A stretch of DNA of 64,000 bases from Psammoneis japonica (lineage: Eukaryota): the NCBI GenBank assembly GCA_008632985.1, contig QPGO01000060.1:310001-374000 (forward strand), given 5' to 3'. Both the position numbers and the translations under genes were made by a program. The notes beneath the pieces were generated by a model that had not been told where the DNA came from, did no database searches, and worked only from the letters and a program-made list of their open reading frames with translations. Of this stretch, positions 12,180 through 60,899 are shown piece by piece; the first letter of the stretch is position 1, and each line of letters begins with the position of its first letter.

Positions 12180-13960
12180 CAGGTGGCCCAACAGTCCATC
12201 CATGCTCAGAAAGCCTTGGATTTTCAGACTGCCAACAAGATGTGGGAGCTGGGCATCCCCAGCAGTGTTGCTTGTGTGGCTGTCCTTGACGAAGGACATG
12301 TGGTGCCCATGCGCCCATGCCGCTGTGCTCACCCCAAGAACCTGGGCAAGATTTTCAGCTTTGGCAAGTCCATTCATGACAACACAGTCATGGGTTTGGC
12401 TCCAAAGAAGCCCAGTCTGTCCAGGCAGGTGGCAAGAGAGAGCTGTGGGACAGCAGCTGTGTGGCTGATGATGCTGCACAAAAAGTGCCCCCAGCGGGGA
12501 GGAGGTTGATGAGCTGCAAAAGAAGTTGGCTGAAAGAGGCACAAAACAGTTTGTTGTTTGCAGCATGAAAAGCACAAGGTGTCCATGGGGTGATGGTGGG
12601 CTGGGTGTGATTTCACCAATGTGTGTGAGTTGGCACAGCTGCAGCAATGGACAATTTGTGGCAGCAAGCTGCTGGCACACACACACAAGAAAACCTCAAA
12701 GCAGTTGATGCTCTGCACATCTCCTCAGCTTGTGCATGTGTGCAACACACATCAAACCACTGCTGCACTGCTCAAATCTCATGAATGAGACATGCTCATT
12801 TTGATGCGCGCAGCCCTGCAAATGCTGCTGTCATTGTTTGCTGTGCTGCCAAAAGGCTTTCATGGGTGTGCTCATTGCAAAAAAAAACAATCTCAAATGG
12901 GACGTCATCACACATTGGCTCCATTGCCCACCCACCAGGCTTTCATGCAAAACAGGTGTGTCAGCAAACTCCAACAAAATGAGCAACCCACAATGCAGCA
13001 GCTGAGAATCAGCGCCAAAATGACAGAAACATTGTTGGCTTGTCACAGCCAACAGCTTTTTTTTCAAGCTGCAAGGTTGTGTTCTGTGCTGCAGTTTTCA
13101 ATTTGGGCATGGCAGCAGTTTTCACCAGAGCAGTCTGTCATGTGACAGGACAGCCCAAGGGTTGTCTCTGGGGATGGCTCTGATGGATTTTGCTTGCAAG
13201 TGCGGGCTTTGAGACTTGTGATCAAAATGAGCAAACTGTTTGGCTCAGCAAGAGACAAAACACAGCAGAGTCAGCTGCTTGTGTTGGGCACTTCAAAAGA
13301 ATTGATTGTTGCGTTTCTTTGCAAGTTTGATGCTTGTTGTTGTTCTGACCAAAAGGCCCTGCAAGCGCCCTCTCTTCTCAGAAAGAAGGCGGCAGAACTT
13401 CGTTGAACATTTGTCCTTTTTCTTGTTCAAATTTCAGCTGCACAACAAAAACCTGCAAAGAACATGTGGTTTCAACACAAACAGAAAAGAGCATGCAATG
13501 AAGCAGCATTGCCAAGTTGTCATCTGTGTGTTGCGGCATTTTGCGACCGTGAGCATGGTGACGACACTGTGCTGCTCCCAGAGTGCCTGGGTGGCTCCAG
13601 TCAAGCCATTTCAATGGCTTGAAATGGTTTGACTGATTGCAGACAAGCACTGCCCATTTGGGTGTGACGGCAGAGGATGGCTGGACTTTGGCGTGCAAAA
13701 TTGAGCATGATGTTGCAAGTGCCAGTCCTGTGTGAAGGCTGCCTGACTTTAACTTTCCACTTTTTTCGGACTGGGCACAAATGACACTTTTGTGGCACGA
13801 AAAATTCCGTTGTTGACCCAAACTGGAGAAAAGCATCCACACAGTTTGTGTTGCCACCGGATGCGCAGATGAGCCTTTTGTTGATCATCAATGCATGACT
13901 TGCGTCTGACCGCAAAATGTTTGTGCTCTCTCCAAAATTCCATCATCATCTTTCAGTGTC
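12180..13960. other. Hypermutated domain depleted of TpA and CpG and rich in TG/CA; degenerate sequence of unknown origin
   Basis: Almost no TA and few CG dinucleotides. The six-frame ORFs here are Cys/His-rich and Tyr-free. Sharp compositional change from normal sequence at ~12150. Confidence 0.85.
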
Positions 13961-13964
13961 TCAA

Positions 13965-14772
13965 GGGGTGCCGCGGACTTGTTTTTTCCGCGTTTGTCCT
14001 AAAATTGGCAATGTGTTTGAATGCGTTTGTTCACAATTGTCAACTTTAAATGCAAGAATTGTTCGATCGCCCACGAAAACGAGAACATCAGGCACCACGA
14101 TCGAAGCACGACGATGACGGCAATTGCGCCATCTCTCAAAATTGGCCCAGCAGCACGAGGGACGAAAGCACACAAATCAATCTGCACTGTGTGACGACAA
14201 CAAAACCAATGAGCATCCCTCGTGAGGCGACACTTTGCAACTCACCACTCGTCGCGAACATCATCATTGTCGATCGTGCTTTTGTCGTGTCATTTTCTGT
14301 CGCGACACGTCAAAAACGCGGAAAAACCCGGAAAAGATGTGCGAAAAAAATGAGCCGACGGGCCGCCTTGAGGGGGACCGCCGACCTGTTTTTTCCGCGT
14401 TTGTCCTTAAAATTGGCAATGTGTTTGAATGCGTTTGTTTGCAATTGTCAATTTTAAATGCAAGAGTTGTTCGATCGCCCACGAAAACGAGAACATCAGG
14501 CACCGCGATCGAAGCACGACGATGACGGCAATTGCGCTGTCTCTCAAATTGGCCAGTGGCACGAGGACAAAAGCACGCAAATCAATCTGAACTGCATGAC
14601 GACAATAAAACCAATGAGCATCCCTCGTGAGGTGATGCTTTGCAACTCACCGCTCGTCGCGAACATCATCATTGTCGCTCGTGCTTTTGTCGTGCCATTT
14701 TCTGTCGCAACCCGTCAAAAACGCGTAAAAACCCGGAAAAGACGTGCGAAAAAAAATGAGCCGACGGCCGCC
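13965..14772. mobile_element. Head-to-tail pair of ~402-bp non-autonomous TIR elements in a TTAA site (Kolobok-like GG...CC termini)
   Basis: Copy 1 is 13965-14367 and copy 2 is 14372-14772. Junctions read TCAA (13961-64), TTGA (14368-71) and TTAA (14773-76). Imperfect TIRs: GGGGGACCGCCGACCTGTTTTTT vs AAAAAAATGAGCCGACG(G)GCCGCC. An uninterrupted empty-site copy lies at 14842-14927. Confidence 0.7.
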
Positions 14773-15310
14773 TTAAGAGACCTTTTGCAAATAAACTGCG
14801 CAAGTCTTGAGAAAAAGCAACTGCTGTTGTCCATCCTACGGGTCGTCGTCTTTCAGTGTCTTAAGAGACCTTTTGCAAATAAACTGCGTAAGTCTTGAGA
14901 AAAAGCAACTATTGTCCATCCTACGGGTAAATTGGTATTACAAACAATTAAGAGGGAAAGTCACTTAAACACTATCTTGTAGCATTTCGACGGTCGACGC
15001 CTCTTGCCTTCCCTCAAAGGGTTTCTTCTACACATTGATCGGTACTTCTGTACGCAGGCTCTTTTTTTCAATAGTGAAAATTCAATATCTCTTGTTTTGA
15101 CGTCGACGAACCGCAGGCGAACAAATTTTGTCATGATCAATCCTACAGTACAGTACAGCTCTCACGCATTTGTCTTTTTCACGTCAGCCAGGCTGTACGA
15201 TTTGTACCAGAAAAAATCTGGAGAGGGCGAGCAACTCTGGACGCCAACGCATGAGCAAAGCGTCTCACTTTTTTTGCACAGAGCCATTCGGCAAGCGAGT
15301 GCAAGAAAAG

Positions 15311-16475
15311 ATGAAGTTCTCATTTGTCTCCATCGTTAGTCTTTGGTACTTGTTGTCTGTCAACGGCCATGAGGACAGCCCAAAGTACAACGATTCGCAG
15401 GAAGCTGTCGGCGACAGGCAGTTGTTGGGATATCGTGGAGCGTGCTGCTTCACTTATGGACCTAAAGAGTGTCTCAACCTCAAGCCTTTACAATGCGCGA
15501 GCAAGGGTGGCTATTATTTAGGAAATGGCTCAGAATGTTTGCCCTACTTCCGGTGCCCACCAAAGGACCAATCTAAGCCAAAGCATAAGCCGAAACCTCA
15601 CACTCCGTATTACCCCCAAAGCCTACGCCGAAGCCTCACACTCCTTATTATAAGCCTACGCCGAAGCCTCACAAGCCTCCCACCCCGTATTATAAGCCTA
15701 CGCCGAAGCCTCACAAGCCTCCCACCCCGTATTATAAGCCGAAGCCGAAGCCTCACAAGCCTCAAACCCCGTATTATAAGCCGACGCCGAAGCCCCACAA
15801 GCCTCACACCCCGTATTATAAGCCGAAGCCGACGCCGAAGCCGACGCCTTACCCTACGCCGAAGCCGACGCCCTACCCTACCCCGAAGCCGACGCCCTAC
15901 CCTACGCCGAAGCCGACGCCTTATCCCACCCCGAAGCCGACGCCTTACCCTACCCCGAAGCCGACGCCTTATCCCACCCCGAAGCCAACGCCTTACCCTA
16001 CCCCAAAGCCTTACAAGCCTCACAAGCCGTACTATCCTCCTACCCCAAAGCCTTACAAGCCGTACTATCCTACCCCGAAGCCGAAAGAAGTTCGCGGATC
16101 TTGTTGCTTCGAAGACAAGGGCGAGTGCCTTAATCTACAGCGAGGACCCTGCTTCCGCAAAGGAGGTCACTTTGCTGGTGAAGGCAACCTTTGTAGCAAG
16201 GAGACTTGCCCAGCTGCATATGGAGCTTGCTGCACGTCGAATGATACTTGTATCGATACCAAGAAGAGGTATTGCAAGAGAATTAAAGGAGACTTCGCCG
16301 GTCTTGGCACTTTCTGTAAACCGAACACCTGCCCCCTCGAGCAGGTGGAGCCTGCTGCTTCAAGAAAGGCAAGTGCAAGATGCTAACAAAGTCCAAGTGC
16401 TGGAAGAAGGGAGGAAGGTTCAAGGGCGGTTATTGCAAACCACACACGTGTCCAAAGAAGCCTTACTATTATTAG
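15311..16475 (+). CDS. Secreted extensin-like Pro/Lys/Tyr-rich protein with Cys-rich 'GACC' repeats
   Basis: Signal peptide [19 protein letters not shown]. Four modules begin GACC/GSCC...C...C..KGG..G..C. The central tract is made of [15 protein letters not shown] repeats (~15590-16085). Two frameshifts (~15610, ~16340) are needed; the R/S-rich translation in the ORF track is the wrong frame. Confidence 0.7.
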
Positions 16476-17849
16476 ATGCAGTTGAGACTGCTGGAGATTT
16501 TGTGTTGCCCTTAAGGATACCGTGCATGCATGTTGCACTTTCGGAACGTGCAGCCAATGCCTTCTTGTCGTGATGTGACGAAACGGCTGTTGCTTCTGTG
16601 TGAAAGTGTAAAACATATTAGGTTCGTGTTTTAGTTTGACACGTGGTGTCTTTTGCAATAGTGCATTCTATATACCGGTACTTGTTTGCAACGTTTTGTT
16701 CCAATGTTCCTCGATTCCCATTTTGCGAGCTCAGCTTTGCAAGAAATTGTTTCGGGGAACAGCGTAAGTTCGGATGAGTTGAAGCGCACACTACTTGCAG
16801 AAGGAGTAGGGCCCTAGCTGCAGGGAATCAGCGAGGAGCAAGCAGCGTCGCTTCAGGCAAACTAAGCTCCGTACTATCTCTACCATTTGCTAACAATTTC
16901 TTAGAGAATAAAAGTATGGGGCGCTGCTGAATTCGACGTTGTGGATTCAATTCAACTAGCACACTCTGCTGGATTCTTGCAATGCGATCAAAGAAAGAGC
17001 AACTTTGACAACTTCGGAGGGAAACGGCAAGAGATTGAAAATCGAATCAGCCCAACCGCATGGTTTTTAGAAGCCCGGTGCACAAGCCAACATTGCTGGC
17101 ACCAGCCAGAGGAGTCAAGGACGTAAGTATGGCAAGAGAGAGGGGATTCCCGACCACTAGATTTCGATGGACAACTGCTCATGGCTACAAAATGCTTATT
17201 GCAAACATGAATGTAGGAGAATATAATATGTGCTAGAACCTGACGAGGATCTCTCGACTTGGCTTCCGGATTTCCCGTGGGCCACTATGAGCTTTTGGTA
17301 ATTCTTTCCACGTTTTGGTCGACATCAACGACAAAAGTCATCATGTGCGCTGTAGTCATTCTAAATTTGTTTTCAGAACCTTGGTATCATCGTCGTTGGC
17401 TTGCAGAGCCATGAGGAGGTCCGACAAGCTCTTTTCCGTCTTGGCAATAGCGCCTTGGAGCAAGACAAATTGCGTTTTGAGATCGGCAAGCATTTCTTGC
17501 ACCGTGTCCAAGTGGGGATTTTCGTTTGCAGCCTGTACGGAATCAGTCAGCAAATCCATCAATGGGTCCAGGGGATACTGGTACTCGTCGTTTGTGACAT
17601 CCTTGGCTGTCGCCTTCTTCGTAACTGCAACGGATGGTAAGATGGCTCGTAGTACCCATCGTGGTCAGATCTGATCAAACACGAAAACAGCTTTTTGGAT
17701 GAGAGTGGGGCCAGGTGGAGGGGTGATACGGCTGTTATCTCCGTCACAGCAGTTGTGGATAGGAGCGAACATTTCCCTGCGCCGCTGATGACCAATGCTG
17801 CAACAGTCATCTATCAAAATTCGAGAGAACGGTAGGTGTTTGCAACCGG

Positions 17850-18992
17850 AGTTGCCGCATAGATGATTATGAAGATCGAGTCAAGAAGACGCGCATCGCG
17901 TGTATTCTCGGCTTTCTGTCATACTTGCCAGTTGGGGAAAGGTCTGTGCATGTTGCTTGGACGTTCTGATGAAGTATTGGAACTTCGAGCTGGTGGAGTT
18001 GGAACAGAGCTTCAACAGTGTCTGGAAATGGGTGGACGAATCTTTTCTGGGTTTTGATCGTGAACTGGCCACATGTGTCATGAATGCCTATTGTACGCTT
18101 CCCTTTGGGATAGCACTTGGGCTGAATCTGAATGCCGATGAGCACGCCAATGAGCAACTCTCGCACCTGATGCGAAGTGAAGATCACTTGATGCCTTTGG
18201 CTTTGCACGATTGCGCAAGGGTATCGCTTGGAAGCTTCGCCACATCCACAAATCCTCCGCATTTTGATTGCCTTTATATGGATATCTTGTGTTGGAGATG
18301 GAAGCTCCGGCGCATGCCCGTGGCTCGACGTCTGAAGATGCCGATGACATGGTCTCCCTCCTGGAACAATTGAATGACGCGGGCTTACTGGAACCGGCGC
18401 CCAAACAATTTGTTGAGCAACTTGCGGGCGACCAGCTGGCAAAAAACCAGCTAAAAACTACTGTTGCATAAACCGAATCATTCTGGTTCCCAGAGCCTCA
18501 CCCACCATTGAGCTCAGTCATTCTTCTGTCTTTCCATGTCGTATCGACAAAGCACGAGGCGTGCTACCAGGATAAAGGCAAACTCGTGCTGAAAGGCCGA
18601 AAACTATTGGAACGAATTAGCCTTTTCTTTCGGAGCATCACGCAGGTAACAGCGATGAGATTTGGCGCCCAACGACAAGTCCTCGACACGGCGTTCGTTG
18701 ATGACTCGCTTGAAGGGTCAATGGTGGCAAATCTTGTCTTCGAAGGTGTCTTTGGACCAGAAGCCGGACTATGGTTTTGCTCTCTCATGTGCTCTATGGT
18801 GAAGTTGCGGTTTCTGAACAGAGCGAAAACGCTCTTTTTCGTGGTCTAGCAAGGAGCGAGGAAGGACTTCGAGTTAACGTTCGCTTGGATCCCGGCATTG
18901 CTGCTTCAATTCACGTGGCAACAGACTTATTGAACAAGGTTTACTTGTGCTTGAGTCGGGCACACATCATTGAGCTTTTCCGTGAACAATAA
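17850..18992 (+). pseudogene. Possible degenerate or frameshifted gene of unknown function
   Basis: Successive protein-like ORF fragments (17900-18373, 18268-18471, 18771-18992) in different frames; no recognizable motif. Confidence 0.25.
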
Positions 18993-19678
18993 AGTATAGG
19001 AGCGCGTGCAGTCAGTGAAGTCGATGTGATAAACTTGCATGGATGTTCCTTACCTTCTTCACAGCAATTTCAAATTTGGTAAGAATAAATTAATAAACTG
19101 CACCTGACGAGTTTCGAGATTCGGATGAAAACATTCTAACATGAGCCGCCGTCAGTTCTACTTTGGAGTTAGTTAGCATCGCTGGGGACAAAGGGGAACT
19201 AAAATTCTCTTTATCGGCCCACACTTGTTAGCCGATATATGAAAAATCAATCTTTTGAAGTTCCCATTTCTTTTCTATTCGGATGTGCTTGGATACGCAC
19301 AATTTGTATAAACGTGCCGTTGTGACTTGCCAACAACATTTTGATTCACTGATGGTAATTCAAGGCAGGAGCTGGAGAAGAGGCTTGGTTTCTTTCGTCG
19401 ACGCAGCAGTCAAAGATGGAACCTTTGCTGTGGTCCTTATTGTGGCTAGCCTAACCCGCGTTATATTTATCTCCATTTGCCCGCAAAAAGTGCGGACTAA
19501 TTTTTTTATTGTTGCTGCTATAACTGTTCATCAACACCAGATCGCCTGCATCTACATATTCCGCCATTTCAGACAGAACTGCTACGCAACCAAAGGAGTT
19601 TGTGCCTTTTAGTTGTGATCAAAAGCCCTTTGGAGTAGGTGCCATACTAGCTCCACAAACACTCTTTGAATGATCAAT

Positions 19679-21352
19679 TTACAGAAAAACCTCATTCGTC
19701 CACGTCCCATGAAATCCATACGGCACGTGAGATGGTAATCGAATTGTGGCAAGCGGGCCCTTGGACAGCTTGGCCGCATCCAAAATGACACAATCCGTCG
19801 CATGCTCGTCGGCGTTGTAGACGAGCGACAAGACGTATGCATTCAATTCGTTCATTTCTTTCCAATTACCTTTTGGCACTACAACGGGTTCCATGGCAAA
19901 CCGATTCGGACCAAAGGATGCGCGATCGACGGTATTCTTGTAAAGATCCAACCGTTCGATACAATTGACCAACTCGGATGTGCTTGGGTAAGCACAATTT
20001 GTAAAAACGTGCCGTTGTGACTTGCCAACAACATTTGGATTTACCGATGGCAACTCAAAGGCCGATGCCGAATCTGGTCCGCAATCTTGAACACTCACAT
20101 GTTTGTCCTTGTCAATCACAATGGAACGCAGCCGACATCGTTCTTGGTCTGTAAAGGTTTGAAAGTACATGTTTTTAAAGACATTTTCGACGTTTTCTCG
20201 TGGTCCATTGTGCGCCGCTATTTGAATCTCCAACAAACCATCGTCTTGTTGTAAATCATGGGCATTGACAATGTGATAAAGCGACACATACTCGTCCGTC
20301 GTCACGTCGGCTACCACGGACAAGTCACTGCGTTTCAACACGACAATTCTCGTTTTCAAATCGTCCGCCCAACGAAACCGTGCACCAAGTGGTGGTGTCG
20401 ACAATACCGACAAGAGCAAGTCCTTTCCAACGGCTGCATAGGGCGGAATGACAAACGCCACGTGCTTTTCCGAAATACACATGTCGTGAACAAAACTAAT
20501 GTTGGGCATTTCAATCGTGGTAGTCGCGTCCAACTGAAGAGAGCCATTAGTAGAAGGAACAAACTTGAACGCCTTGAGTTGTGTCAGACTGGGCCATGCC
20601 GACGGTACTCCAAGCCTCAGCCCGCACGTGTACATTTCACCCGTTTCGGGACACTCGACCGGATGTGCTGACGCACAATCTTGGGGCGTTCCAAATTCGT
20701 CGGGTGAATCATAATCATAATAACCCAACGTTTCCAATGTTTTGATATCCATCAAATGCGGCGGTCCACCCTCGGCCAAGGCCAATAAAAGGTGTTTGCC
20801 ATTTTTATCCTTTACGACTCGACAGGACGTATTGCCCGGATTGGTGGGTTTCTTGAACAAATTGGCAAACCACTTTCCATACTTGGCATCCGTCCATGCT
20901 CCACGTTGTGTCATGCCTCCTTCACCATTGCCTTCTTCGTTTTGTATTCGTTCCGTTTGAACATACTTGCCTTGCAGAATTGCTGCTTGATTGCCATTCA
21001 ACGTGAGCTTGACGACATAACCATCCCCATCAAACCAGTGTTTGTAGAGCGAGTTTTTGCCCACGCGGATCCGACCGGGACCATTGCGAAAGAGCGTCCC
21101 ATGCAAGTCCTTGGGGATTTTACCCTGAATGACGTTGCATTCCAATGGTTTTGGGATATCGACCGCCGGCTCGAGACCTCCTTTCCATGGCGATTTTTGA
21201 ATTTCATCCAGCAGAAACGACGGAGTGTCGTCCATGGCTTTTTGGGACGTCCAATACGACGATGCTTCTTTTTGCTTGACTGCAGCAAAGGAATGTGTGC
21301 TGTCAATCAACAGGACCAGCACAAGAATAAAGAGACTATTGAACAAGGCCAT
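19679..21352 (-). CDS. Carotenoid cleavage dioxygenase (RPE65/CCO family), probably plastid-targeted
   Basis: GKIPKDLHGTLFRNGPG, HWFDGDG, iron-ligand histidines in SAHP, FVHD, LYHIVNA and VPYGFHGTW, plus FELP and EPVVVP. Signal peptide MALFNSLFILVLVLLIDSTHS-FAA. Confidence 0.92.
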   Translation of the reverse strand: MALFNSLFILVLVLLIDSTHSFAAVKQKEASSYWTSQKAMDDTPSFLLDEIQKSPWKGGLEPAVDIPKPLECNVIQGKIPKDLHGTLFRNGPGRIRVGKNSLYKHWFDGDGYVVKLTLNGNQAAILQGKYVQTERIQNEEGNGEGGMTQRGAWTDAKYGKWFANLFKKPTNPGNTSCRVVKDKNGKHLLLALAEGGPPHLMDIKTLETLGYYDYDSPDEFGTPQDCASAHPVECPETGEMYTCGLRLGVPSAWPSLTQLKAFKFVPSTNGSLQLDATTTIEMPNISFVHDMCISEKHVAFVIPPYAAVGKDLLLSVLSTPPLGARFRWADDLKTRIVVLKRSDLSVVADVTTDEYVSLYHIVNAHDLQQDDGLLEIQIAAHNGPRENVENVFKNMYFQTFTDQERCRLRSIVIDKDKHVSVQDCGPDSASAFELPSVNPNVVGKSQRHVFTNCAYPSTSELVNCIERLDLYKNTVDRASFGPNRFAMEPVVVPKGNWKEMNELNAYVLSLVYNADEHATDCVILDAAKLSKGPLATIRLPSHVPYGFHGTWTNEVFL

Positions 21353-21783
21353 CCTGTGAAAAAGTAGAATACGAGTTTTGCGAGTGGTGATGCAACTGAT
21401 GCAACTGTAATGACGTTGTGAAGTGCAACGTTCAACGTGCAACGCGACGCTGTGACGTGTTGCTTAGGATTTTGTCATTTTTAGCCTCCTTCGACCTCGT
21501 GCTTGTAAAATATTATTTTATTTAGCGTATATATTTTCAGTACGAGCTTTGATTGGTGGTATCTTTGTAAACTTTCTCTGTCAGCACAACAAAATTTTCT
21601 CTCTTTAGAGCTAAAGACTGAAGAGGCAGATTGATTCAAAGATGCTATCGAACAATGCCATGGGTTTGGGATACTACTAACTAATGATATAATAGTGTGA
21701 TTTTGTTATGTCTGCAATCATGATTAACGAAATCTTTTTTCCGACAAATCAAGCACATGTCAAAACTCGTCTGATTTTTTCTC

Positions 21784-23503
21784 TCAACATTGATAGAGAT
21801 CAGTGTACTTGTTGGTCAAGTAATCAATAAAATACTTTGGGTTGAGTTTTTCGCCCAACTCGGCCTCCAAGTGTTCATCTAAACTTTTGTAGCGGCTTCC
21901 GTGTTTATGGACCTTTTCCGTCAACCACGCCTTTATTTCTTCAAAGTCACCCGCCGCTACCTTTTGGTGAAAGTCTGGAATTTGCTCTTGACAATAATAC
22001 GCCAATTGGGCAGCCGTTGCGGCTCCGAGCAAATACGTGGGAAAGTACCCGTACGCCAACATGGACCAATGCACGTCCTGCAAACATCCCTTGGCATCAC
22101 TGGGTACGTCAATGCCCAAGAGAGACTTCATTTGTTCCTTCCATCGCTGTGGAATGTCCTTGACTTCGAGTTTGCCTTGGACCAAATCACGTTCCATATT
22201 GTATCGCAAAATGATATGCAATGGATACGTCAATTCATCCGCTTCGACACGAATCAAGGAACGCGATGCAGCATTGACGGCACTGTACAATTCATCGGGC
22301 GAATGCGACAAATTCAAAAACGAATTGACCAGCGGCGTGGCATGGTTCCAAAACTCACGACTCAAACCAATGTGACGTTCCCAAAAGAGTGATTGACTCT
22401 CGTGCATGCCCATACTGAGCGCATCGTCAATGGGCAAACCGCTATTGCCTAAATTTTGTTCATACATGGCATGGCCCGCCTCATGGAGAGAACCAGCCAA
22501 TCCTGGTACCATTCGTCCTTGCGAAAACGAGATGTGATTCGAACATCGTGTGGACTAAAACTAATCGAAAAGGGATGGACACTGACATCAATACGACCAT
22601 TCGAGTCGTCAAATCCAATGGCTCGGACCAACGATTTGGACAAGTCTTCTTGAGAAGCAATCTCAAACTCTCCTTTAGGGTCCGTACTGGGAGGTGTCGC
22701 GTTGGGTCCCAATACCCTGTCAATCAAGGGTACCAAGGCTTGTTGGATTTGTTGAAAAATGTCATCAATACGAGCCGGATCCATTCCAACTTCGTATTCA
22801 TCCAACATTGTTGCATAGAGCGACTTGGATTCTTGTTGTTCAAGAGACGTTTGTTGTACCAAGGCAATTTCCTTGGCGACATCAATACAATCCTTGAGCA
22901 AATCTTGAAACATACCAAAGTCGTCCGCTTCACGTGCCTTGGCCCATACATTATACGCCTCGGCCGATAGGGCAGCCTTGCGGGATGCCAATGCCGTGGG
23001 AATGTTTACCTTCTTGTCGTAGGCCTTTTTGGCCAATTCCACGACACGGCGCTTTTCTTCATCATCTTTTGCTTGCACCGTTTCCAAGAGTTGTCCGAGT
23101 TTGGGATCGATTGATTTTTCGTGAATGACGGCCGCAAGTGCCGCTTGTTGTTTTCCTCGTTCGGCCGATGCGGCATCGGTCTGTGGCATGAAGACCATTT
23201 GATCATAATCCAAAACTGCCGCAGCACGAGACAAGTGGTAATTCCTTGTAGCGTCTCGACGAGTTCATCATAGGTTGTCGTTGTCGTTGTTTCGTCTGTA
23301 GCCACGTCATCCGCCGCCGTTGTGGTGGCAGCGGTAGCGCATGTTGCACCTCCGCGACTTGTCGTTGTTGTTGCCATGGTTGGAGCTGCCGACGCGACAA
23401 AAGCAAAAGGGAAGCGTGAAGCAAACGCAAAAGCACAACTGTTGCTTGTCACGGCAGACCAAGTGGTGAAAAAGGCGGCAGTTGCGGCTCGGCTAAACCT
23501 CAT
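21784..23503 (-). CDS. M32 family metallocarboxypeptidase (carboxypeptidase Taq-like)
   Basis: HEAGH zinc motif, VSVHPF, DVRITSR, HESQS, IRVEADE, GCLQDVHW, GYFPTY. Spread over three frames with frameshifts at ~23235 and ~22500. N-terminal targeting peptide. Confidence 0.92.
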
Positions 23504-23784
23504 GGCCGAGAGAGATTGTGTGTCTGTTTTTGCGCAAGTCTTGATTGTGAGTGAGTCAGTGGCCTTGTCCGTTTGTCGTTGTGAACTCCATCACAACGTT
23601 CCCGTCCCGACAACCGCGCGCGTCTCTCGCGGTGCTTCCGCGAGAGCTTGCGCTACCATACGCGCGCTCCTGCCACCTGTCGTCGTTCGTCGTCAGCCGT
23701 CAACAACACCCAAAAAAAGATTCGACCATGATGACACAGCGTCGCATTATTCTTTGTCACAGCAGCCCAACAAATTGTCACATT

Positions 23785-24807
23785 ATGAAAGGAATGGTCT
23801 ACCGCTATGTCTACATATATCTTGTTCTGTTAGTGATAACACCACAATTGAATGCACTGCCACGAAAAAGTATCTTGACAAAAAACCCATCATCATCACG
23901 CTTGTTGCTTCTTTCATCAAGAGGTGGTTCTTCGTCACCACCACCATCGTACAATGATGATTATCCCGGAAATCACCAAGAAACGGTCCAATCCCGTGTC
24001 GATGCATGGCGCCAAGAACAACAAAGCAAGTATGCACACATGACACCGGCACAAGAATCGAATCCTCGTGATGAGGACGGTCGTATCAAATTGTTGGCAA
24101 GTGTCTCACGTGGATCACGAGCCATTATTTTTTTTATATTAATGTGGCGGGATGTACACTTGTACGAAGTAGCCGATCAAGCCTTTGTGGGTTTCAAACG
24201 ATTGTGTTTTGTCACGCCATTGACGATATTGTTTATTGCCAACATGGCGGGCGTGGTGGCGTCCTTTACTGCACCGACCCATTCGGCCAAGAAACGACTC
24301 AAGGCTATTTTGAATCTCAATAAGCTTGTGGAGTTTCTCTTGATTTTGCACAATTTTGTGCGACTCACCTTTTTGCCGTCCAAGTATATTCCAAGAGAGA
24401 TTTATATTGCCAATACGTTGTATTCTGTCTTTATCATTGTTCAGAGTCAAGCCTTTACCAAGGTGAATTGGTGAGTAGAAGTACTGTATTGACGAGAGAT
24501 TGTTGTGCTTTTGTGTAGTTTTGTCTGTTTATTACGTTGGAGCAAATGTTGTTGTTGTGCTAATGTATACAATTGACTCATGTGAACCGAAATTTTTTGT
24601 TTTTTCCATAGGGGAGAGAACACACTCAAGAGCAGCACGCCAACACCACCGGATCCTTATGCCTCGTCGTATGCTGCTGCTCCTCCAGATAGTAGTGACT
24701 TTGGATATGCCGAATCACCACCACAACAACAACAACCACCGTCGTCTCAACAGCAACAATATTATGACGCACGTACTACAACCGCCCAACAAACATATGG
24801 TCGTTAA
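23785..24807 (+). CDS. Hypothetical multi-pass membrane protein, 2 exons
   Basis: Signal-like N-terminus and about 4 hydrophobic segments. Intron 24472-24611 (GTGAGT...ATAG); exon 2 is in frame to TAA at 24805-24807. Confidence 0.7.
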
Positions 24808-24909
24808 AAAAGAATTGAATAAAGAAACACCGGATATGCTTTTCATTGCGTGTTGTATGAATGCAATCATTCTATTATGATTTCTGTATTCCCATCCTGT
24901 AGTATGTCT

Positions 24910-25650
24910 CTACTTGCTACTAGAGCTGTTACCATTCTTTGGTTTCGTTTCTTTTCCACTCCTCTCTTCTTCATCATCCGAACTTTCTTCCAAATGTTCT
25001 AATTCCTTGTATTGTTGTTTCCATACTTTATAATGAGACGTTTTCTTCCAAATATAATAAAATTCCACAATACTTTGGTCGTTTTGGATGGTCCAATATC
25101 GGCTTGGATCAAATGAAAGTGTTTGCCATGCAACATTATCGAGGCTTCAAATTTGGCAATTTCATATGGACTCCATTGTTCAATGACAGTGGGACGTCGT
25201 AATGGACTCGACAAGTAACCCAAGGTTGTGACGCGTTCGATTGGAACATTATATGGATAATGGCCAAAGGGTAATGATGTCGACGAGGGATGATGGTACA
25301 TGAGATTACCCACCAAGCTAATGTAGTCTTCTGCCATTTGATGAGCTGTTTTATAATGAAATAGAAAAAGAAGTAAGAAGTAAGTAAGAAAATATAACAT
25401 ATAAGACGTGTGAACAAATATTGGAGAGAGAAAAGAGAGTTGCAAATGCCGCCAGCAAAATACACGGAGGTGCATAATGTTCTGTATGCGCACCTCTCCA
25501 TCGTTTCTTTGGTTGTACAGAAGAATCATCGTCAGGCCGAGGCCGTTTCCGCACCACTCCATCATTATCGCCTTCTTCTTCATCAAGAGCACGCTTAGTA
25601 TTGGTATCCACTGGCTGAGAGGATGATGATTCAACGTCCATAGTTGCCAT
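24910..25650 (-). CDS. Small SANT/Myb-like domain protein (MIER/RERE/MTA-type SANT)
   Basis: RRPTVIEQWSPYEIAKFEASIMLHGKHFHLIQ, then after one frameshift VEFYYIWKKTSHYKVWK. One intron at ~25347-25460. Confidence 0.75.
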
Positions 25651-26135
25651 GGTCAAGTCTCGTGCTTTTGTGTGTGCTTGTTTGATGGGCACTGATGTGG
25701 CGCGTTTTGATTTTACTGCTTTTCAGCCTCTTATGGTCAAAAAGGACTGTTTCTCTCATTTATGATGAAAAAAGGTGATTTGCTTTCAATTATCATTGAA
25801 AAGTGAATTTCGACCATACGGGGTACAAAATGAATCAAATCAAGGGGCAATATAATTATGTCTGCTCATGCGTTGATTGGGTGAAAGACATTTTATATAA
25901 CCTTAATATTGTATAAATATGAAAAAAATTTGTATTATCGTTACTAAACTATATTGTTAAGTTATTATTTATGGGATAACGGCTGGCGAGGGTCGTCAAC
26001 ACACCGGCATCCACTTCAAGGAGGAGTTTGCCAATGAGACGCGCACTCCGCCGTTTGTTTGTTGTGTGTGATTGAACTCTAGCTAGAGTCAGCCGTGTAA
26101 CCAATCAAGACATCAGATAAGAACCAGACTACAGT

Positions 26136-30300: not shown

Positions 30301-30378
30301 CATTGATGTCCTGCATGAGGTTTCAGTCCCATCCCAGAGAATCTTTTGTGACAGGCAATCAAGTTGCTGGGCCACAAT
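27088..30378 (+). repeat. Diverged tandem duplication, unit ~1.64 kb (27088-28740 and ~28745-30378), including the 3' end of the 26136-27326 gene
   Basis: 27088-27623 aligns with 28745-29273, and 27882-28740 aligns with 29507-30378. Confidence 0.88.
27624..27881. other. Assembly gap (run of N)
   Basis: 258 Ns. By the duplication, the missing sequence should resemble 29274-29506. Confidence 0.98.
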
Positions 30379-47505: not shown

Positions 47506-47520
47506 GTCGACAGCAAGCAA

Positions 47521-48490
47521 GATGGGTGGGGCGGATAGAATGAAACTGACAGAATAATTGACGCATCATGGCTAAGGAAATGTGGTCCCAGTCTTTTCTT
47601 TGGTATAGTACATATAATAAGATTGAAAAATACGTTTCTATCAACTCTAGCTGTTCTCTTCTGTCGCATCGTTGACAGCCTGAAAAGGCATGTAGGCAGA
47701 GAACAACTCGATCACACGGGACAGAAAATGCATGGGGACATCGAAGCTGGACAGCGCTGGTTTCAGTAAAACTAGGGCCCTGCGTTGATGCTTGATGGGT
47801 GGGGGCGAATAGAATGAAACTGACAGCATAATTGACGCATCATGGCTAAGGAAATGTGGTCTCAGTCTTTTCTTTGGTATAGTACATATAGTAAGATAAA
47901 AAATACGTTTCTATCAACTCTAGCTGTTCTCTTCTGCCGCATCGTTGACAGCCTGAAGAAAAGATAGAATGAAACTGACAGAATAATTGACGCATCATGG
48001 CTAAGGAAATGTGGTCCCAGTCTTTTCTTTGGTATAGTACATATAATAAGATTGAAAAATACGTTTCTATCAACTCTAGCTGTTCTCTTCTGTCGCATCG
48101 TTGACAGCCTGAAAAGGCATGTAGGCAGAGAACAACTCGATCACACGGGACAGAAAATGCATGGGGACATCGAAGCTGGACAGCGCTGGTTTCAGTAAAA
48201 CTAGGGCCCTGCGTTGATGCTTGATGGGTGGGGCGAATAGAATGAAACTGACAGCATAATTGACGCATCATGGCTAAGGAAATGTGGTCTCAGTCTTTTC
48301 TTTGGTATAGTACATATAGTAAGATAAAAAAATACGTTTCTATCAACTCTAGCTGTTCTCTTCTGCCGCATCGTTGACAGCCTGAAGAAAAGGCATGTCG
48401 GCAGAGAACAATTGGATCACACAGGACAGAAAATGCATGGGGGGCATCGAAGCTGGACAGCGCTGGTTTTAGTAAAACTAGGGCCCCACG
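47521..48490. repeat. Intergenic tandem array of a ~273-bp unit (3 full copies and 1 truncated) with higher-order A-B-A-B structure
   Basis: ATAGAATGAAACTGACAG(A/C)ATAATTGACGCATCATGGCTAAGGAAATGTGG recurs at ~47535, 47808, 47963 and 48237. Alternate copies share diagnostic variants. Confidence 0.92.
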
Positions 48491-48933
48491 TTTCTATCAT
48501 CAACAAAAGCTTTGGCCTCCAAAGTGGGGGGCGTCTTTGGAAGTGAGATCGACGAAGGCGATCTGATCGCCAGTGCGTTTGGGGGTTTTCCCAGTACAAT
48601 TTGTACGCACAAAAAAACACGTAGGATCTGTCCAGCGATCCCAAATACCCCAATCGCACTGATTGACAGACTGTTTTAGTACAAATTCTACGTAACTTTC
48701 TTCGACAGTCTCACTTCCGAAGACGTCCCCCAAAAGGAGGTGGTAGCTGAAACAAACCCGGAAAATGGAGTCTTTCGCCAGGAGCTGGACGCGCGCGCGC
48801 ACGACCAACCGTTGGAAAGCTAAATAAATCTCATAGGGAACTCAACTGCCGTGGTCCCTTCCCTTCGGGATCAGATTCTCACACCAACACATCACAAAGT
48901 GAGCGTCAAGTCATCGCCAAAGAAGGAGGCAAC

Positions 48934-55035: not shown

Positions 55036-55039
55036 AGAT

Positions 55040-55625
55040 TGTCATGTGGCACAAGGCCTATTGTGGGTGATTGTGGTGATTTTAAGAGTCGTTCATGAAA
55101 AGTGAGACTATAAAAGTGTAAAATTATGAAGTGAATTTCTGGAGCGGTGATCTCGCGGAATGTTCTTTCGATTCTTTCTTTTCCAGAGAAATTCTGTTCT
55201 CGTTATGTAGGAACGTTCCTGGGTTCTTCTTTAAGTGTATATCGTCTAAGGGAACGTCTTGGGACTTCTGAGGAGGTCACGTATGGTGTCCGAAGGTATC
55301 ACGGGAAAAATCGAGAGATCCGATTCGCTCTTCATCGTTTCGACCGTTTTCTTGTGAGAATCGGATTGGCTGAAAAGGAACTTGAAGTTCGGCTAAGAAA
55401 TGTCTTCTCGATTTACTTAGGAAGTGATACACGTGTCCAGTTGTTTACTATCGCTTTCCGCATGTGTCCGGTTGTTTACTTAGGAGGAAGATGTTGGATA
55501 ATTGTTCATGTAGTATGCATGTCTCTCTTGATGTATGTTCACGTAGATGTATATAGGTTCTGTCCGTAGTTCTCTATTGTTCTTTATGACGTCTCGAAGT
55601 GTCGGGTCATGAGCACGACGTGACA
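55040..55625 (-). repeat. 3' LTR
   Basis: Matches 61070-61655; only one difference seen (55523 C vs 61553 G). Confidence 0.95.
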
Positions 55626-55648
55626 CGCGCCTCCTCCAATGAATCGCA

Positions 55649-58600
55649 TCAGGGAGAGAAAGGAACGAGACGCCGCGCATTGACGGTCTCGAGGTAATTT
55701 CCTTTTTGGATGATGACGGTGCCATTGGATTTTACTTCATGTATCTCGTATGGGCCAAGTCGGCGTAAGGCGAGTTTGGATCGACGAGGGTTGTCGTTTC
55801 GGAGAGAAACAAGGTCTCCTGCTTTGAAGTCATGGTCGAGTCGCCGAGAGTTTTCACGCGCGTCATCTGCTTGCGCTTGTTGTCGGCGGCGAGCATAAAT
55901 GGTCGGCCAGTGGACGTTGTATTGTAAGAGAAGGATCATATCTCTTCCAAAAGCAAGTTGGCCGGCAGAGGCTTGCATGACGGCATGTGCCGTCGAATTT
56001 ATCGCCCAAGTTGCTGAGGCTGTTGTCGCATTCCACGGATTCGGTTGATTGAATGCGTCGGGATCATCGACTTGTTGGGCCCGTATGCAGCTCCATAAAA
56101 CATCGTGGGTCCGTTCAAGTAGTGAATTCGCCTGTGGGTTCCGTGCTGTCGCAGGTTTAGACTTAATCCCACAAGAAACTGGCAGTTCTTGAAATTCAAC
56201 ACCTGTAAATTCCGCACCGTTGTCGTGTGTGCAATAGACCGGGCGCGGAAATTTGCATAACCACGCTTGGTCAAATGCTCTGGCAGCTTCCAGAGCTGAG
56301 ACTGTGGAGATCTGCTCCATGCCAAAACAACGAGTAGCTAGATCTGCCATTGTGAGGGCGGTTGACGTCAAACTTCGTCGGTTGACGCCGGCACCAGTGG
56401 CAAAGGTAATCGGTCCGACAGTGTCGACTGCCACCTGCAACCAGGGGTCGATCTCAAGGGCTTGTGTGTCCTTAAGAGGTGTTTTTCCATACACTCTGCG
56501 GTTCTCTTTTGACTGTAGACAGGTCTGGCATTGGTCCATTTTGGTCTTGACGTCTCGGGTCAAACCTTGCCAATGACAGTGCTGCCTGAGGGTCTTTTCC
56601 ATTCGTTGGATACCTGGATGGCGTAAATTGACATGATGCCAGTTCAATAGAGGTGCTTGTAAAGTTGTAGGGACAACAATCTTGTCCTTAAAAAGGACCA
56701 GGCGCAGGTGTCCATCCTGCACCATGCAACTGTAGTCAGACAATTCTTTCCGACTCGGGTCGGTTCGAGTGAGTTGCAATGCTTTTTTTGCACGTAGCAT
56801 CATCTTGCTGTGCTTCAATAATCGTGTCAAACGAGACAGGACAATGAGTGTTATCGTCGTGTTCAAAGGCGAAACACTCTTCCAGCATTGGATCTGCAGC
56901 TGGCATCTCTGGGTCGCCAGTCGTGGTCGCGGCACGTGACAAGAAATCCGCGAGCACATTTTTTGCTCCCGGCAGGTAAAGAATCGTGGGACCAAATTCC
57001 TCAACAATCAGTCGCCAACGACATGCGCGGTCTGACTTGAAATTTGCAAAGGTCAGATTCTTGTGATCCGTGTAGATCGTGATCCTGTGACCCAATGGGA
57101 TGTCACGATGCTCTCGTAGCATCACAACTGTCGACAGCAGTTCTTGTTCGACAACTGGACATCTTTTTTGCGTGTCGGAGAGTTTGCGGGAGTGGAACGC
57201 TGTCGGGCGCTTGTCTTGAATGACAACGCTTCCTGGCTGGTATTTCGAAGCATCGGTGTAGATGTAGAACATCTTGTTGAAATCAGGGCAGGCAAGAAGC
57301 ATCTCGGTAGAGATCCGTCTCTTAATTTCTTGAAACGCTTGCTCGTGTTCAGGGTTTCCACTCGAACTTGACCGCTTTCGAGGTCATGCTCGAAAGAGGT
57401 GCCAACAGATGGGCACGAAGTCGCCACATCTCGCGATAGAAGTTTATCATTCCAATGAAACCTCTGAGTTCTTTCTTTGTTTTGGGCGAAACCAAATTCA
57501 CAATCGCATTGACTTTCTTGGGTTGCGGTTTGATTCCGTTTCTAGTGACAACAAACCCCAGGCACTCCGTTTCTAGAGCGCAAAAGAAAGTTTTTCGCAA
57601 GTTTACTCTAAAGCCTGCATCATTCAAAAGCACAAATGCTTCGCGCAATTGGGCGAGGTGATCATCAAAGGATCCCTTGCCAACAATCAACAAGTCGTCG
57701 ATAAAAATCAGAACGAATTCCAAGTGTCCAGCAAGTCAGTCATGACTTCTTGGAATGTGTCTGGGGCTGGTGCAAGTCCCATTGGTAATCTGCAATGAGC
57801 ATGTTTGCCGAACGGCAGCACAGCAGTCAGACACTGCTGACTCTTCTGGCTGATCCGCATCGTAAAAAATCCCACATTCAAATCGATCGCTGTAACACAA
57901 GCACAGCCATGCAGCTTTCGGAGCATGGTTGGCATCAAAGGCAGAGGCCATGGGCGTCGTTGCATGCGTTGATTTAACAGCCGAAAGTCGGTGACAAATC
58001 GGCAATCACCACCTTTCTTCGGTGTGAACATTGAGGGAAATCCCCAAGCTGAGTCTGAGATCCTTCTCAGAACTCCTGCTCGGCACAATCTCTCCACTTC
58101 TCCTTTTGCCATGTTGCAGTTGATCTGGGGCATGCTGCAAGGTCGGCACACAATGGGCTCGGTGCCGGGCTTAAGCTCAATGTTGACCGGTGGTCGCTTG
58201 ACACAATGTCCGAGCTCTCCTTGCGTGAGACTGGAGAAGTCTTCCAGCAAAGTGATGAGAGCTTCACCTTGCTCTCTCGACAAGTGCTCGGGCACACACT
58301 CTTGTAAGTCCTCCACAGGACTGCAGTCATTTGGGCGAATGGCTTTGGCCTTACGAGACGCCACAAGCTCTTCTTGCGTCGTTGGTCGGTGCCAAAAATC
58401 CTCGGGACATCTCATTGGAAAGGACAAGTCATCCCAAGCAATGACTTTTTCCTGGAAATCAAGCTTCATTCCAAGCTTGAACAGAACATCTTGTCCTGCA
58501 ATGGCACCACAGATTCCTTGCAATGATGAAACACAAAAGCATAAATCGAATTGTCTGTGTGAGGATGTGTCAAGGAATCGACAACGAGTGAGTGCGACAT

Positions 58601-60899
58601 GAGTTGTCTGATGGGTCTGCGCAAACAAGGTCTCCCATCTTGTTGGTGCTGAGGTGGCCTCATCCAGTGCTTCTTTTGAGAGCACATCTCTCTTTGTTGT
58701 TGTTCGACTGCTGCCGCTGTCGAGCAAGGCGAGCAGAACATTGTTGCTTTTGTCTCGAGTCCCATCAACTGGATCGAGCAGTTGAAGTTGCACAATGCAT
58801 CCGGGGTTCTTCCACTCATGTTTTTGAGGCTTTCGTGCTGCGTGTCTTCTCGGCTTCTTGTTGCCACTTTGCTCCTCTTCTTGTTCTCTGAGGTGGTCAG
58901 ACATGCCATCTCCAAAGACTTCTTCTTCTTGGTGGAACCAAGTGCGACACTCTTCATCATCTAGGTGCACTGTGCCAGGTTCACAGTAAAAGAAATCATG
59001 ATCACTGGATGCACTCAAATGCTCGTAACCATCACTCTGAGGGTCTGGTTCAGGCATTCGTGCTGCTGGTTGTGGCTCAGGCGCCACGGCTGGCATAAGT
59101 TCATTCGTCATATAGATACTCTCTTCATCGGTATCGGACTCTGGAGCCGCTGACATTTTCTTATCGGACTCGCTATTCATGAGTTCGTCTGCCGATGCAG
59201 CTCGCTTCGTCTTCGAGGCAGTTGCTCGATGAGAAAGTGAGCGACATTGCTCATATATGTAGGGTTCGGTGTCTTCGGACGTTTTCGAATGTCCTTCTTC
59301 TTCTTCGAATTCGTCTGGGTCACCTGGAACACATAAGTTCCTTCTCGTAGGATATATGCCCCCATGAGGGAACACTACGTAGTCGCAATCGTCCATTCCA
59401 TCTGGATATAATGCTTCTATCAACTCCTGGGCGTCCGTGCTGTTGTCATGCTCGAAAATTGATGATGTCAGAGATGCGCACTCATCCGCGCTGTCTGCTG
59501 TAGCCTCATACTCGTCATCGGCATCTTCTCCAAAAGATGACAGCTCGTCCATAGACGACATACGTAAGGTTGTCGACGATACTGTTGACATACTACTAGC
59601 GGTACTCCACAAATCATCGCTGTCTGACGATGTTGATCCGCTGTGCGGCACGAATTCCGGCATGCTGGATGCATCAGTTGTTTCTGCTGGGTCCATGGGA
59701 GGTCTCTGTCTCTGTTGCAGCTCAAAGTCTTCTGGCAACAGAACGCAATAGTTCTCTTCCACGTAAGTATCATATTCTCCGTCTGATTCTTCATAAGAGT
59801 AGCTCGTATCGTCTTCTGGTATCTCAAGTCCGTCTTCTTGTTCATAAGATTCAGGTTCAGAATCATCTCTTATGCTGAGTTGTTCCAGTTGTTCAGCTGG
59901 GGCTGAGTCTATACTGTTGTCCGGGTTCTGGACTGGTAGAGCTTCTTCTGGCTCGTGTACGGCACGTATTTCTTGCCGGTTCGTTCGGGTACGTCCTCTC
60001 TGTTGACCATAGCCTTGAGGACGGTTCCTATCACGCTGTAAGTTGGCTTGGTATCGAGTAGGATATCTATGTGGTTGGTTGGGAGGAGCTCCGGCGTTGT
60101 TATTGTTATTATTGCTCGGTCGTGTCGCTCGGTCGCCTCCATGTCCGTATGCGGTTCGGTAGCCGTGAGTGGGGATACGTCTCTGGAATCGCCGTTGGTC
60201 ATTTGACAACCTTCTCTCTTGTTGGGCCTTCTTCTTCTGTAGGAAGGATTCAATGGTGGAATAGTATGTCTCCAAGTCTGCCATACCATACTCACCTCTG
60301 TGTCCGACGGATAGTTGGAATCTCTCTCGCCAATCATCCGGCACAGCATGCTCTGCTGCATAAGTTAACTCTTGGTCCGTGAGAGGGGCTCTCTCTTCTG
60401 CAGAGCCTCTCATGTAGGGTACTAGCTCATTGATTTCCGAAATTCTGGAGGTGAATTCAATGAAGGTAGTTTCTCTTGGCTTGCGTATGGAGCGCAAGTA
60501 CTGCTTCTGCACTGCCGCTGAGTCTCGAGGAAGCAGTCCAGCAGTGACTGTCTCTACTGCTGTATCAAACTGTTCAGGGGTAAGTTCTTCTGGATTTTCA
60601 ACTAGAGCTCTTACCGCTCTCTGATATCGGTCCTTGATGGAGCCTCTGGTTAGGCATAACATCTGGCAATGAAGTGCTGGTCCTGTTGTCCAGTGCTTGA
60701 CCGTTCTTAGCTCATTAAAGTCTTTTAAAAAGACTAGGTACTTCTCCTTGATGGAGGTATCACACTGATGGATATAAAATGCCACCGTGTCTTCCGGTTC
60801 TCCCGGGTCTGGCGCAACCTTGTACTTGATTAGGCTCGCAACGTCGTCCGCTACTTGGGGGTACGACTTGTATAACTTCACAATCGCTTGACTAGTCAT
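55649..60899 (-). pseudogene. gag-pol polyprotein, hypermutated and frameshifted
   Basis: Protease LLDSGSS; RT FVTDFRLLN, RLPMG, FIDD; RNase H TDAS...SRKL...EQELL...TDHKNL; integrase HxxxxHPG...CxxC, VDTVGP, DNGAEF, NPQANSLLER. Frameshifts at ~57720, ~57350 and ~56810. Confidence 0.9.

Follow-up and report, generated by a model that had tools for sequence, protein, structure and literature searches.

The DNA-level hypermutators of repeats and retroelements described so far, namely repeat-induced point mutation (RIP) in fungi and the APOBEC enzymes, all act on cytosine. RIP, as known from the RID/DIM-2 system of Neurospora and from the TCG variant of Pucciniomycotina, is restricted to C:G to T:A changes, and its preference for CpA (or TCG) raises the content in TpA, which is created from CpA. 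We describe here, in a 64,000-nt stretch of the genome of the diatom Psammoneis japonica (contig QPGO01000060.1, positions 310,001-374,000; hereafter the window), a hypermutation by which repeat-derived DNA has lost nearly all of its TpA dinucleotides (TA in the following) to TG or CA. All the polarised DNA evidence comes from this single window. The transitions are local, fixed in DNA and motif-specific, with a decay of CpG (CG) superimposed in the oldest domains, a description that we hold with high confidence. No TpA-directed DNA hypermutation of repeats was found described in the literature searched (subscription journals lay outside its coverage), nor in the available parts of PMC9998398, PMC2806351, PMC5124317, PMC3145265 and PMC6313786.

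Like fungal RIP, the process at this locus has produced near-saturating transitions in repeat-derived DNA, locally, on both strands and fixed in the genome, and duplicates (segments B and B', and the units of the repeat R408, see below) have been mutated independently. It departs from RIP in its host, a diatom instead of a fungus, and in its chemistry, since 16 of 32 polarised context events are TA to TG/CA, and TA is erased (observed/expected ratio, o/e, 0.01) while CpA and TpG are doubled. An earlier note on this DNA, made from the sequence alone, had set the process apart from fungal RIP, and this distinction stands, as A:T pairs are targeted and TpA is erased.

The window as a whole contains 2,180 TA, with an o/e of 0.49 and a mean of ~3.4 per 100 bp. 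It nevertheless includes runs devoid of TA, of 1678 bp (12072-13750), 1232 bp (29840-31072), 1092 bp (33819-34911), 909 bp and 771 bp, the longest of which would occur by chance, at the mean rate of the window, with P ~6e-26. In the three stretches taken as core (12100-13900, 30400-32396 and 33837-34911; 4,873 bp in sum), 3 TA remain where ~186 are expected, with an o/e of 0.01 compared to 0.54 in the background. These results confirm the previously noted loss of nearly all TA in discrete stretches, next to neighbouring genes of normal composition. A genome-wide mutational equilibrium was ruled out as an explanation, because intergenic DNA, an inserted transposon and the long terminal repeats (LTRs) of a retroelement hold normal or high TA. 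The four domains formerly regarded as being of one kind have all lost TA, but domains 2 and 3 are a single one, spanning ~27980-34911 and interrupted by the later insertion of a transposon with terminal inverted repeats (TIR), and both 13950-14800 and domain 4 have lost TA only. The TIR element, whose flanking T runs blur the target-site duplication and which contains an internal palindrome of 540 bp (32686-33226, 74%), was evidently inserted after domain 2/3 had formed.

No microsatellite was detected by Tandem Repeats Finder (TRF) in the TA-free stretches, the sole tandem being the 405-bp repeat at 13964-14774. There was no credible Pfam match in domains 1-3 among 59 open reading frames (ORFs) or frames from the depleted domains, and no match to these domains when the proteins of the LTR element were compared to the window by tblastn. 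Domain 1 has no detectable partner within the window, even by a transition-blind (purine/pyrimidine) coding.

Read support was taken from Logan contigs of two public runs, X1 and X2, the former of which is possibly the assembly's own sample and so provides no independent replicate. The X1 contigs span all 30 bins of 12001-32000, with a word depth of ~50-60 that equals the one of the flanking genes, and a single contig of 9,279 bp, extending into the neighbouring genes, matches 12101-13832 with 8 substitutions and no gap. The same TA-free sequence is thus carried by contigs built from reads, and, as these agree with the assembly, an artefact of the assembler is excluded. Five of the 8 differences in domain 1 are polymorphisms between CG or TA and TG/CA, one of them at a TTAA-type site, and the process is still polymorphic in this domain. 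The X2 run is recorded as 'DNA?'; one of its contigs omits 141 bases with GT..AG ends (24470-24610), i.e. a spliced intron, and this joint (24469/24611) suggests that X2 behaves like RNA, as a transcriptome would. X2 does not cover 12001-14001 or 28009-32000, which does not count as evidence of silence.

The direction of the changes is revealed by a tandem duplication of a gene tail, with the layout A-gap-B followed by A'-X'-B' (Table 1). Copy A, covered by contig 15 of X2 (26035-27623), provides the unmutated reference, and the X2 contig extends 58 bases into the assembly gap, where it reads TA, TA and CG at positions at which X' reads CA, CA and CA. The transitions that occurred from A to A' fall on 7 of the 16 A and 4 of the 17 T found in TA sites, together 11 of 33 bases, compared to 12 of 244 other A/T bases (P 7e-6, odds ratio 9.7). 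In CG sites, 9 of the 26 C and 6 of the 26 G are affected, together 15 of 52 bases, compared to 3 of 169 other C/G bases (P 3e-8), and 15 of 26 CG sites are converted in A'. Changes from TA to TG/CA number 11 in this direction and 0 in the reverse one, while those from CG number 15 and 2, respectively. When the first 120 bp of B and B' are added to A and A', 16 of 20 TA and 16 of 30 CG now read TG or CA. We estimate that TA sites changed in A' at ~40 times the rate of other transitions, ~65% of them being lost while 0-5% of the others are changed. The previous claim that the duplicated tail differs from its intact original at TA is therefore borne out, as is, within the window, the predicted excess of transitions at TA sites over those at other A/T bases.

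Between B and B' we count 45 transitions versus 9 transversions; at 6 places there is a double difference, one copy reading CA and the other TG. Five such double differences are found between the R408 units and none in the young 430-bp tandem (47534-48392); they are expected if one ancestral TA or CG has been resolved independently in each copy. Comparison of A with A', an R408 copy, the CA/TG double differences and the loss of tyrosines from the reverse transcriptase (RT) of a retroelement all agree on the proposed direction: it is from TA to TG or CA (A:T to G:C), local, on both strands and fixed in DNA.

R408 is a high-copy family, as its summed word depth in X1 reaches 2639 (13964-14774) and 1064 (31635-31990), compared to ~55 in the flanks, which suggests some 20-50 copies, and joints of X1 contigs connect its two parts in other copies. 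The two tandem units contain few TA and 36-37 CG each, 30 of 37 CG being common to both. The ancestral state at their CA/TG double differences was almost certainly TA, given these shared CG. TAY (Y, pyrimidine; R, purine) is absent from the + strand of the tandem, in which YTAR is kept at the background rate. A further copy was found inside domain 2 by transition-blind self-comparison and could be aligned over 31635-31810, where, relative to the units, most of the CG (with transitions at 10 or 11 of 25-27 CG-site bases) and 1-2 of 2 TA are changed to TG/CA. A weak purine/pyrimidine-coded match of R408 to 60086-60164 failed in alignment, and a degenerate R408 pattern had 0 matches in the metagenomes.

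The four flanking classes of TA are not equally affected. RTAY, YTAY, RTAR and YTAR occur in the background at 13.0, 10.5, 9.2 and 5.5 per kb, respectively, and are reduced to 0, 0.4, 0.8 and 4.6 in the partly mutated stretch 27990-30400, to 0, 0, 3.5 and 5.9 in the R408 tandem, and to 0, 0, 0 and 0.6 in the core domains. Surviving TA are YTAR in 19 of 25 cases, versus 14% in the background (P 7e-12). Among polarised events, YTAY became TG in 4 of 5, RTAR became CA in 2 of 2, RTAY was split 5:4, and both YTAR (2 of 2) were kept; moreover, the TG excess of the core peaks at NTGC. The simplest rule that fits these sequence data is a single-strand motif, 5'-TAY-3', in which A is read as G on either strand (equivalent to T to C at 5'-RTA-3'). 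Under this rule RTAY is resolved either way, YTAY gives TG, RTAR gives CA, and YTAR (TTAA, CTAA, TTAG) resists. An earlier claim, by which target sites of the TTAA type have become TCAA and TTGA, was not reproduced. YTAR is the most resistant class, and the sole delimited TIR element is flanked by T runs.

The specificity for TA is also seen at the level of all dinucleotides. TG and CA both reach an o/e of ~1.9 in the core, the remaining twelve dinucleotides shift little, AC is unchanged, and AA/TT is not depleted (AA o/e 1.24 in the core, 1.17 in the background). When two rules only, motif-dependent TA loss and 78% CG loss, were applied to ordinary DNA of the window, the 16-dinucleotide profile of the core was reproduced with r 0.98 and a root-mean-square deviation of 0.09, versus 0.38 for unmutated DNA. 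DNA polymerase eta, with the WA motif of the second phase of somatic hypermutation, was considered and rejected, as A to G would then be expected at AA as well as at TA.

CG loss, a point absent from the earlier note, is a separate component. The core stretches contain 63 CG (o/e 0.22 versus 1.03 in the background), and each loss is found without the other: TA loss without CG loss in the R408 tandem, in the retroelement patch described below and in a public protein, P0230, and CG loss without TA loss in 4 of 80 related metagenome retroelement loci (L016, L032, L040 and L060, CG o/e 0.09-0.20). The two depletions are thus independent across organisms. Transposable elements of diatoms are methylated at CG (PMC9998398 and PMC5124317), and the CG component would be the ordinary deamination of 5-methylcytosine (5mC) in methylated repeats. 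Such decay also turns CG into TG/CA on both strands of silent repeats, but covers the CG half of the changes only, while TA is lost at least as fast, and also where CG is kept. That plain 5mC decay is insufficient had been stated before, and holds, since TA, an A:T step, is lost even where CG persists.

Domain 4 is a TA-only case, carried by a Ty3/gypsy-type LTR retroelement whose LTRs differ at 4 of 596 positions (99.3% identical), none of them at TA or CG, with 33 TA in each LTR and 0 converted. The named relatives of this family are from the diatoms Nitzschia and Mayamaea. The gag-protease-RT ORF spans 57711-60947, and RT, RNase H and integrase lie in shifted frames. In the depleted patch, TAY on the + strand of the window, i.e. 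the antisense (minus-strand cDNA) strand of the element, is reduced to 1.9 per kb, versus 25.7 elsewhere in the element, whereas RTAR is merely halved. Only 4 of the 26 TA of the patch are TAY(+), compared to 61.5% in the background (P 2e-6), a strand bias that points to a single-stranded substrate. The patch may have been acquired during reverse transcription, inherited from a mutated master copy or generated in place.

The coding consequence is a loss of tyrosine. The ORF has 34 tyrosines in its first 654 residues and 0 in the next 425, none being encoded from 58985 to 57440. Aligned with 100 homologues, collected by a full HMMER search, the RT keeps 0 of 7 conserved Tyr columns (C, W, C, F, F, H, H), while the homologues keep a median of 71%. 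A TAY codon for Y can be turned by a single transition into one for C or H. The claim that conserved pol codons were changed by TA to TG/CA is consequently upheld for the C and H residues, but the two F and the W are not explained in this way.

This patch is reminiscent of APOBEC3 editing of cDNA, which also affects the minus-strand cDNA over graded, kb-scale patches and spares the LTRs. APOBEC3 was rejected, however, because it edits C, while here A is changed to G at antisense TAY, in a patch whose CG and C content are both normal. Furthermore, the gradient runs opposite to the HIV pattern, and DNA that is no retroelement (A', domain 1 and R408) is affected too.

Table 1. Features of the 64,000-nt window of Psammoneis japonica (positions within the window)
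Feature	Position	Strand	Description
Core domain 1	12073-13900		TA 0, CG ~1 per 100 bp, TG + CA doubled; single-copy depth in X1
R408 tandem	13950-14800 (TRF 13964-14774)	+	two units of a 405-bp CG-rich repeat; TA loss only
Copy A	27081-27623	+	3' end of ORF 26136-27326 plus downstream sequence; unmutated, 20 TA, 28 CG; polarity reference
Assembly gap	27624-27881		258 N, at the very junction of unmutated and mutated sequence in duplicate copy 1
Copy B	27883-28741	+	first ~80 bp keep TA; TA-free from ~27980, the left edge of domain 2
Copy A'	28737-29274	+	gene-tail duplicate within domain 2
X' and B'	29275-30380	+	remainder of duplicate copy 2
Core of domain 2	30381-32396		includes a fully converted R408 copy at ~31635-31990
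TIR insertion	32397-33836		1.44 kb, TA-rich, non-autonomous, perfect 21-bp TIRs; not mutated
Core domain 3	33837-34911		continues domain 2 past the insertion
TA-only depleted patch	56000-59050	+	protease-RT part of the retroelement; sharp edge near 59050, gradient to ~56000, CG ~normal
Ty3/gypsy-type LTR retroelement	55040-61665	-	LTRs 55040-55635 and 61070-61665
430-bp-unit tandem array	47521-48492		~2.3 copies, normal TA, young
RPE65-type carotenoid oxygenase	19679-21442	-	best named relative: diatom Attheya, 57% identity, 57% query coverage; next, dinoflagellates and other diatoms
C5 DNA methyltransferase ORF	62463-63998	+	cut by the window end; long N-terminal part without known domain, then domain start

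Similar signatures were found outside the window, as proteins only or in weak form. Among 277 fetched members of the retroelement family, 2 are Tyr-free, namely P0230, an NCBI record of 699 aa, and P0262, an ENA record of 397 aa. Both are Ty3/gypsy polyproteins in which conserved Tyr have become C or H, the NYYRD-type motif reading CH in both. Compared to three relatives (62-67% identical), P0230 shows 94 differences in the 505 columns where these agree, including 14 Y>H, 9 Y>C and 7 L>P, without an excess of Arg changes; no such excess appears when each relative is taken as the odd one out, with a maximum of 4 Y>H in one of them. Judging from these proteins, the TA-specific signature is also present in other public records of this diatom-type Ty3/gypsy family, and the window is not an isolated case. 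Scanning genome contigs with P0230 yielded no more than a 45% relative (L001), and not the DNA of P0230 itself. A metagenome scan with the alignment A3 gave 79 loci, and of the 80 examined with L001, one (L070) contains a 1-kb window with a TA o/e <0.1. Its first 3.2 kb (L070:1-3200) form a tandem array with units of ~490-660 bp and 17 TA, versus 170 in the adjoining 2.5 kb of gypsy-type RT region; CG is kept, the boundary near 3200 is sharp, and the block is G+C-richer than the flank (0.57 versus 0.45). An old repeat pair in L070 shows 11 CA/TG double differences beside 80 transversions. L070 is a weaker case, given this higher G+C content and a different pattern among its surviving TA (see below).

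What kind of process could be responsible? Our overall reading, to which we give a probability of about 0.6, is that an enzyme-driven A-to-G process acting on DNA would cause the TA hypermutation, with 5mC decay added to it. An enzyme is suggested by the ~40-fold rate in A', the strict dependence on flanking bases and the strand bias in one element. The process has nearly reached saturation, on either strand, in two putatively silent intergenic domains, and has acted mostly on one strand in the retroelement patch. A TadA/ADAT-like deaminase of the cytidine deaminase (CDA) fold could turn adenine into hypoxanthine on transiently single-stranded DNA, and might act as a defence against repeats and retroelements, or mutate them as a by-product of such a defence.

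The deaminase step is put forward tentatively, and is clearly less probable than the reading as a whole. It is favoured among possible chemistries because the TAY motif, with T in 5' and a pyrimidine in 3', resembles the U-A-C target of the natural TadA/ADAT enzymes on RNA (U-A-C-G for TadA). The likeness extends to the TadA-derived adenine base editors, in which A is likewise turned into inosine and read as G, T (U) precedes it and a pyrimidine is favoured after it. It is a resemblance by motif alone; the natural substrates are tRNA and some mRNAs, and the one considered here is DNA. Activity of TadA/ADAT on DNA is known for engineered variants only, besides C-to-U changes by the trypanosome ADAT2/3. 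The broader proposal of a natural DNA adenine-deaminating defence, directed at 5'-TAY-3' where silenced repeats or the replication intermediates of retroelements expose single strands, in diatoms or in this lineage plus the sources of P0230 and P0262, appears to us doubtful to the same degree.

Several observations weigh against our reading. We know of no natural deaminase of this kind that acts on adenine in DNA, and no deaminase, TET/JBP or MT-A70 gene was found in the 64-kb window. On double-stranded DNA the end product is the same for A to G at TAY and for T to C at RTA. The 32 polarised events do not form significant strand-coordinated clusters (runs test, P 0.24), both strands are depleted in 58000-59000, and the gradient of the patch declines from a sharp 5' edge toward the 3' end in sense orientation, the opposite of the APOBEC3G/HIV pattern, so that an editing of cDNA is no clean fit. 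Outside the window, the TA surviving in L070 are mainly RTAR (12 of 17) and not YTAR. Finally, the flank preference of CG loss, RCGY being the most resistant, is marginal (P 0.053). Of the adenine process on double-stranded DNA initially proposed, the A:T to G:C change at TA is therefore retained, while adenine deamination would be one of two chemistries with the same outcome.

The other chemistry, which is the main rival, starts from thymine. A TET/JBP-type dioxygenase would oxidise T in TpA to 5-hydroxymethyluracil (5hmU), and 5mC in CpG to 5-formylcytosine or 5-carboxylcytosine, and these bases, by mispairing or by faulty repair, would then cause T-to-C and C-to-T changes. In this way a single enzyme could account for both losses and spare CpG where it is unmethylated, in agreement with the collapse of both self-complementary YpR steps to TG/CA in the same domains and with elements that have lost TA but not CG. 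Its double-strand outcome equals that of the adenine process, and a preference for T in TpA is shared by base J of kinetoplastid telomeres and by the 5hmU of dinoflagellates. We nevertheless consider the thymine route rather improbable: 5hmU opposite A is only weakly mutagenic, the window holds no gene for the enzyme, as said above, and the high-copy R408, which keeps its CG, would need to be unmethylated. In dinoflagellates 5hmU replaces 12-68% of T, the part of PMC6313786 consulted giving nothing on context, and the literature searched, as far as its texts were accessible, contained no record of 5hmU from diatoms.

A true RIP-like system, triggered by duplication, dependent on a RID/DNMT4-like methyltransferase and mutating both repeat copies around sexual reproduction, is less probable again. 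The affected DNA does include a tandem duplication, a high-copy repeat and a retroelement, with duplicates mutated independently, and diatoms possess a DNMT4 that is related to fungal RID and whose function is unknown (PMC9998398). The window even has its own DNMT ORF, for which the link to an Ascomycota-type cluster is a lead only. A mechanism of the C5-methyltransferase type, however, yields C to T and not A to G. In addition, fungal RIP, a premeiotic process that depends on a RID/DNMT4-type methyltransferase, mutates both duplicates once triggered, whereas here copy A is untouched while A' is mutated, and the LTR pair, the 430-bp tandem (two full units, 47534-48392, with 0 substitutions) and the TIR element are unmutated; domain 1 is mutated without a detectable partner in the window. 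Because of these intact copies, homology is unlikely to be the trigger.

The boundary in copy 1, near 27980, lies just past the end of the transcribed gene, and the same sequence is mutated in copy 2, where it lies inside the domain. This favours a process that would depend on position or be episodic, and a location in a silent domain may fit the pattern better than the targeting of repeats. The idea that repeats or silenced chromatin are targeted thus survives in part: repeat-derived DNA is affected and position fits, but the near-identical LTR pair, the 430-bp tandem and copy A have been spared.

A-to-I editing of retroelement transcripts by an ADAR- or ADAT-like enzyme, fixed through reverse transcription, is more improbable still. 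It would agree with the strand bias and Tyr-free frame of the patch and with the two further Tyr-free RTs in public records, and fungal ADAT2/3-type mRNA editing and bacterial TadA also prefer U before the edited A. The main change in the patch is antisense A to G, however, i.e. T to C in the RNA of the element, and Y>H is found as well as Y>C. Neither the gene-tail duplicate nor domain 1 nor R408 is a retro-copy, and RNA editing is contradicted for domains 1-3; that it would not suffice by itself had been foreseen from the tandem DNA duplication of the gene tail. Hyperediting by ADARs, which are metazoan enzymes, likewise gives clustered A-to-G changes with U preferred 5', but it acts on double-stranded RNA and would also edit A after A, while here AA is untouched and DNA-level duplicates are affected.

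Lastly, a sequencing or assembly artefact, foreign DNA natively devoid of TA and CG, or selection against these dinucleotides is very improbable: the possible identity of X1 with the assembly's sample, the gap at 27624-27881, a domain 1 without identified origin and the G+C-rich L070 block, possibly a native property, can be invoked in its favour, but contigs rebuilt from reads match the assembly at normal depth and link the domain to its gene neighbours, copies of host sequence (A' and an R408 copy) carry the changes, the signature is found in both NCBI and ENA records, and the destruction of conserved residues makes selection on coding sequence unlikely.

The genomic context is that of eukaryotic nuclear DNA with many genes and few introns. 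Besides the carotenoid oxygenase of Table 1, these include an M32 carboxypeptidase, a formate/nitrite transporter, the ribosomal protein L31e and the C5 DNA methyltransferase ORF. The best solved relatives of the latter are DNMT1. In the Atlas, the clusters closest to it consist of DNMT-only proteins that are most frequent in Ascomycota, a match with a score of 0.89 that serves as a lead only. The ORF may be a diatom DNMT4 (RID-related) gene. It lies 800 bp from the LTR retroelement. A further ORF (15170-16573, + strand, 467 aa), which has no Pfam match and contains short tandem repeats with periods of 6, 21, 24 and 42, is the opposite extreme to the TA-free domains, as its G+C content is 0.58 and its TA o/e 1.86, especially in 15578-16082.

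A natural motif-specific A:T to G:C process would, if true, add a new chemistry of mutation to those of genome defence. Were a DNA adenine deaminase responsible, this would be categorically new, the equivalent for adenine of APOBEC and RIP, erasing all Tyr codons of a transposon, and our results could possibly point to a natural DNA adenine editor, an activity that has so far been engineered only. Such a process would explain dead transposons that are free of TA and Tyr and invisible to homology searches, in line with the lack of any Pfam match in domains 1-3, and transition-blind alignment together with a search for Tyr-free ORFs provides simple ways to find such relics. For diatoms, it offers a concrete and testable read-out of epigenetics, as to which chromatin is exposed and whether the orphan DNMT4 or other enzymes take part.

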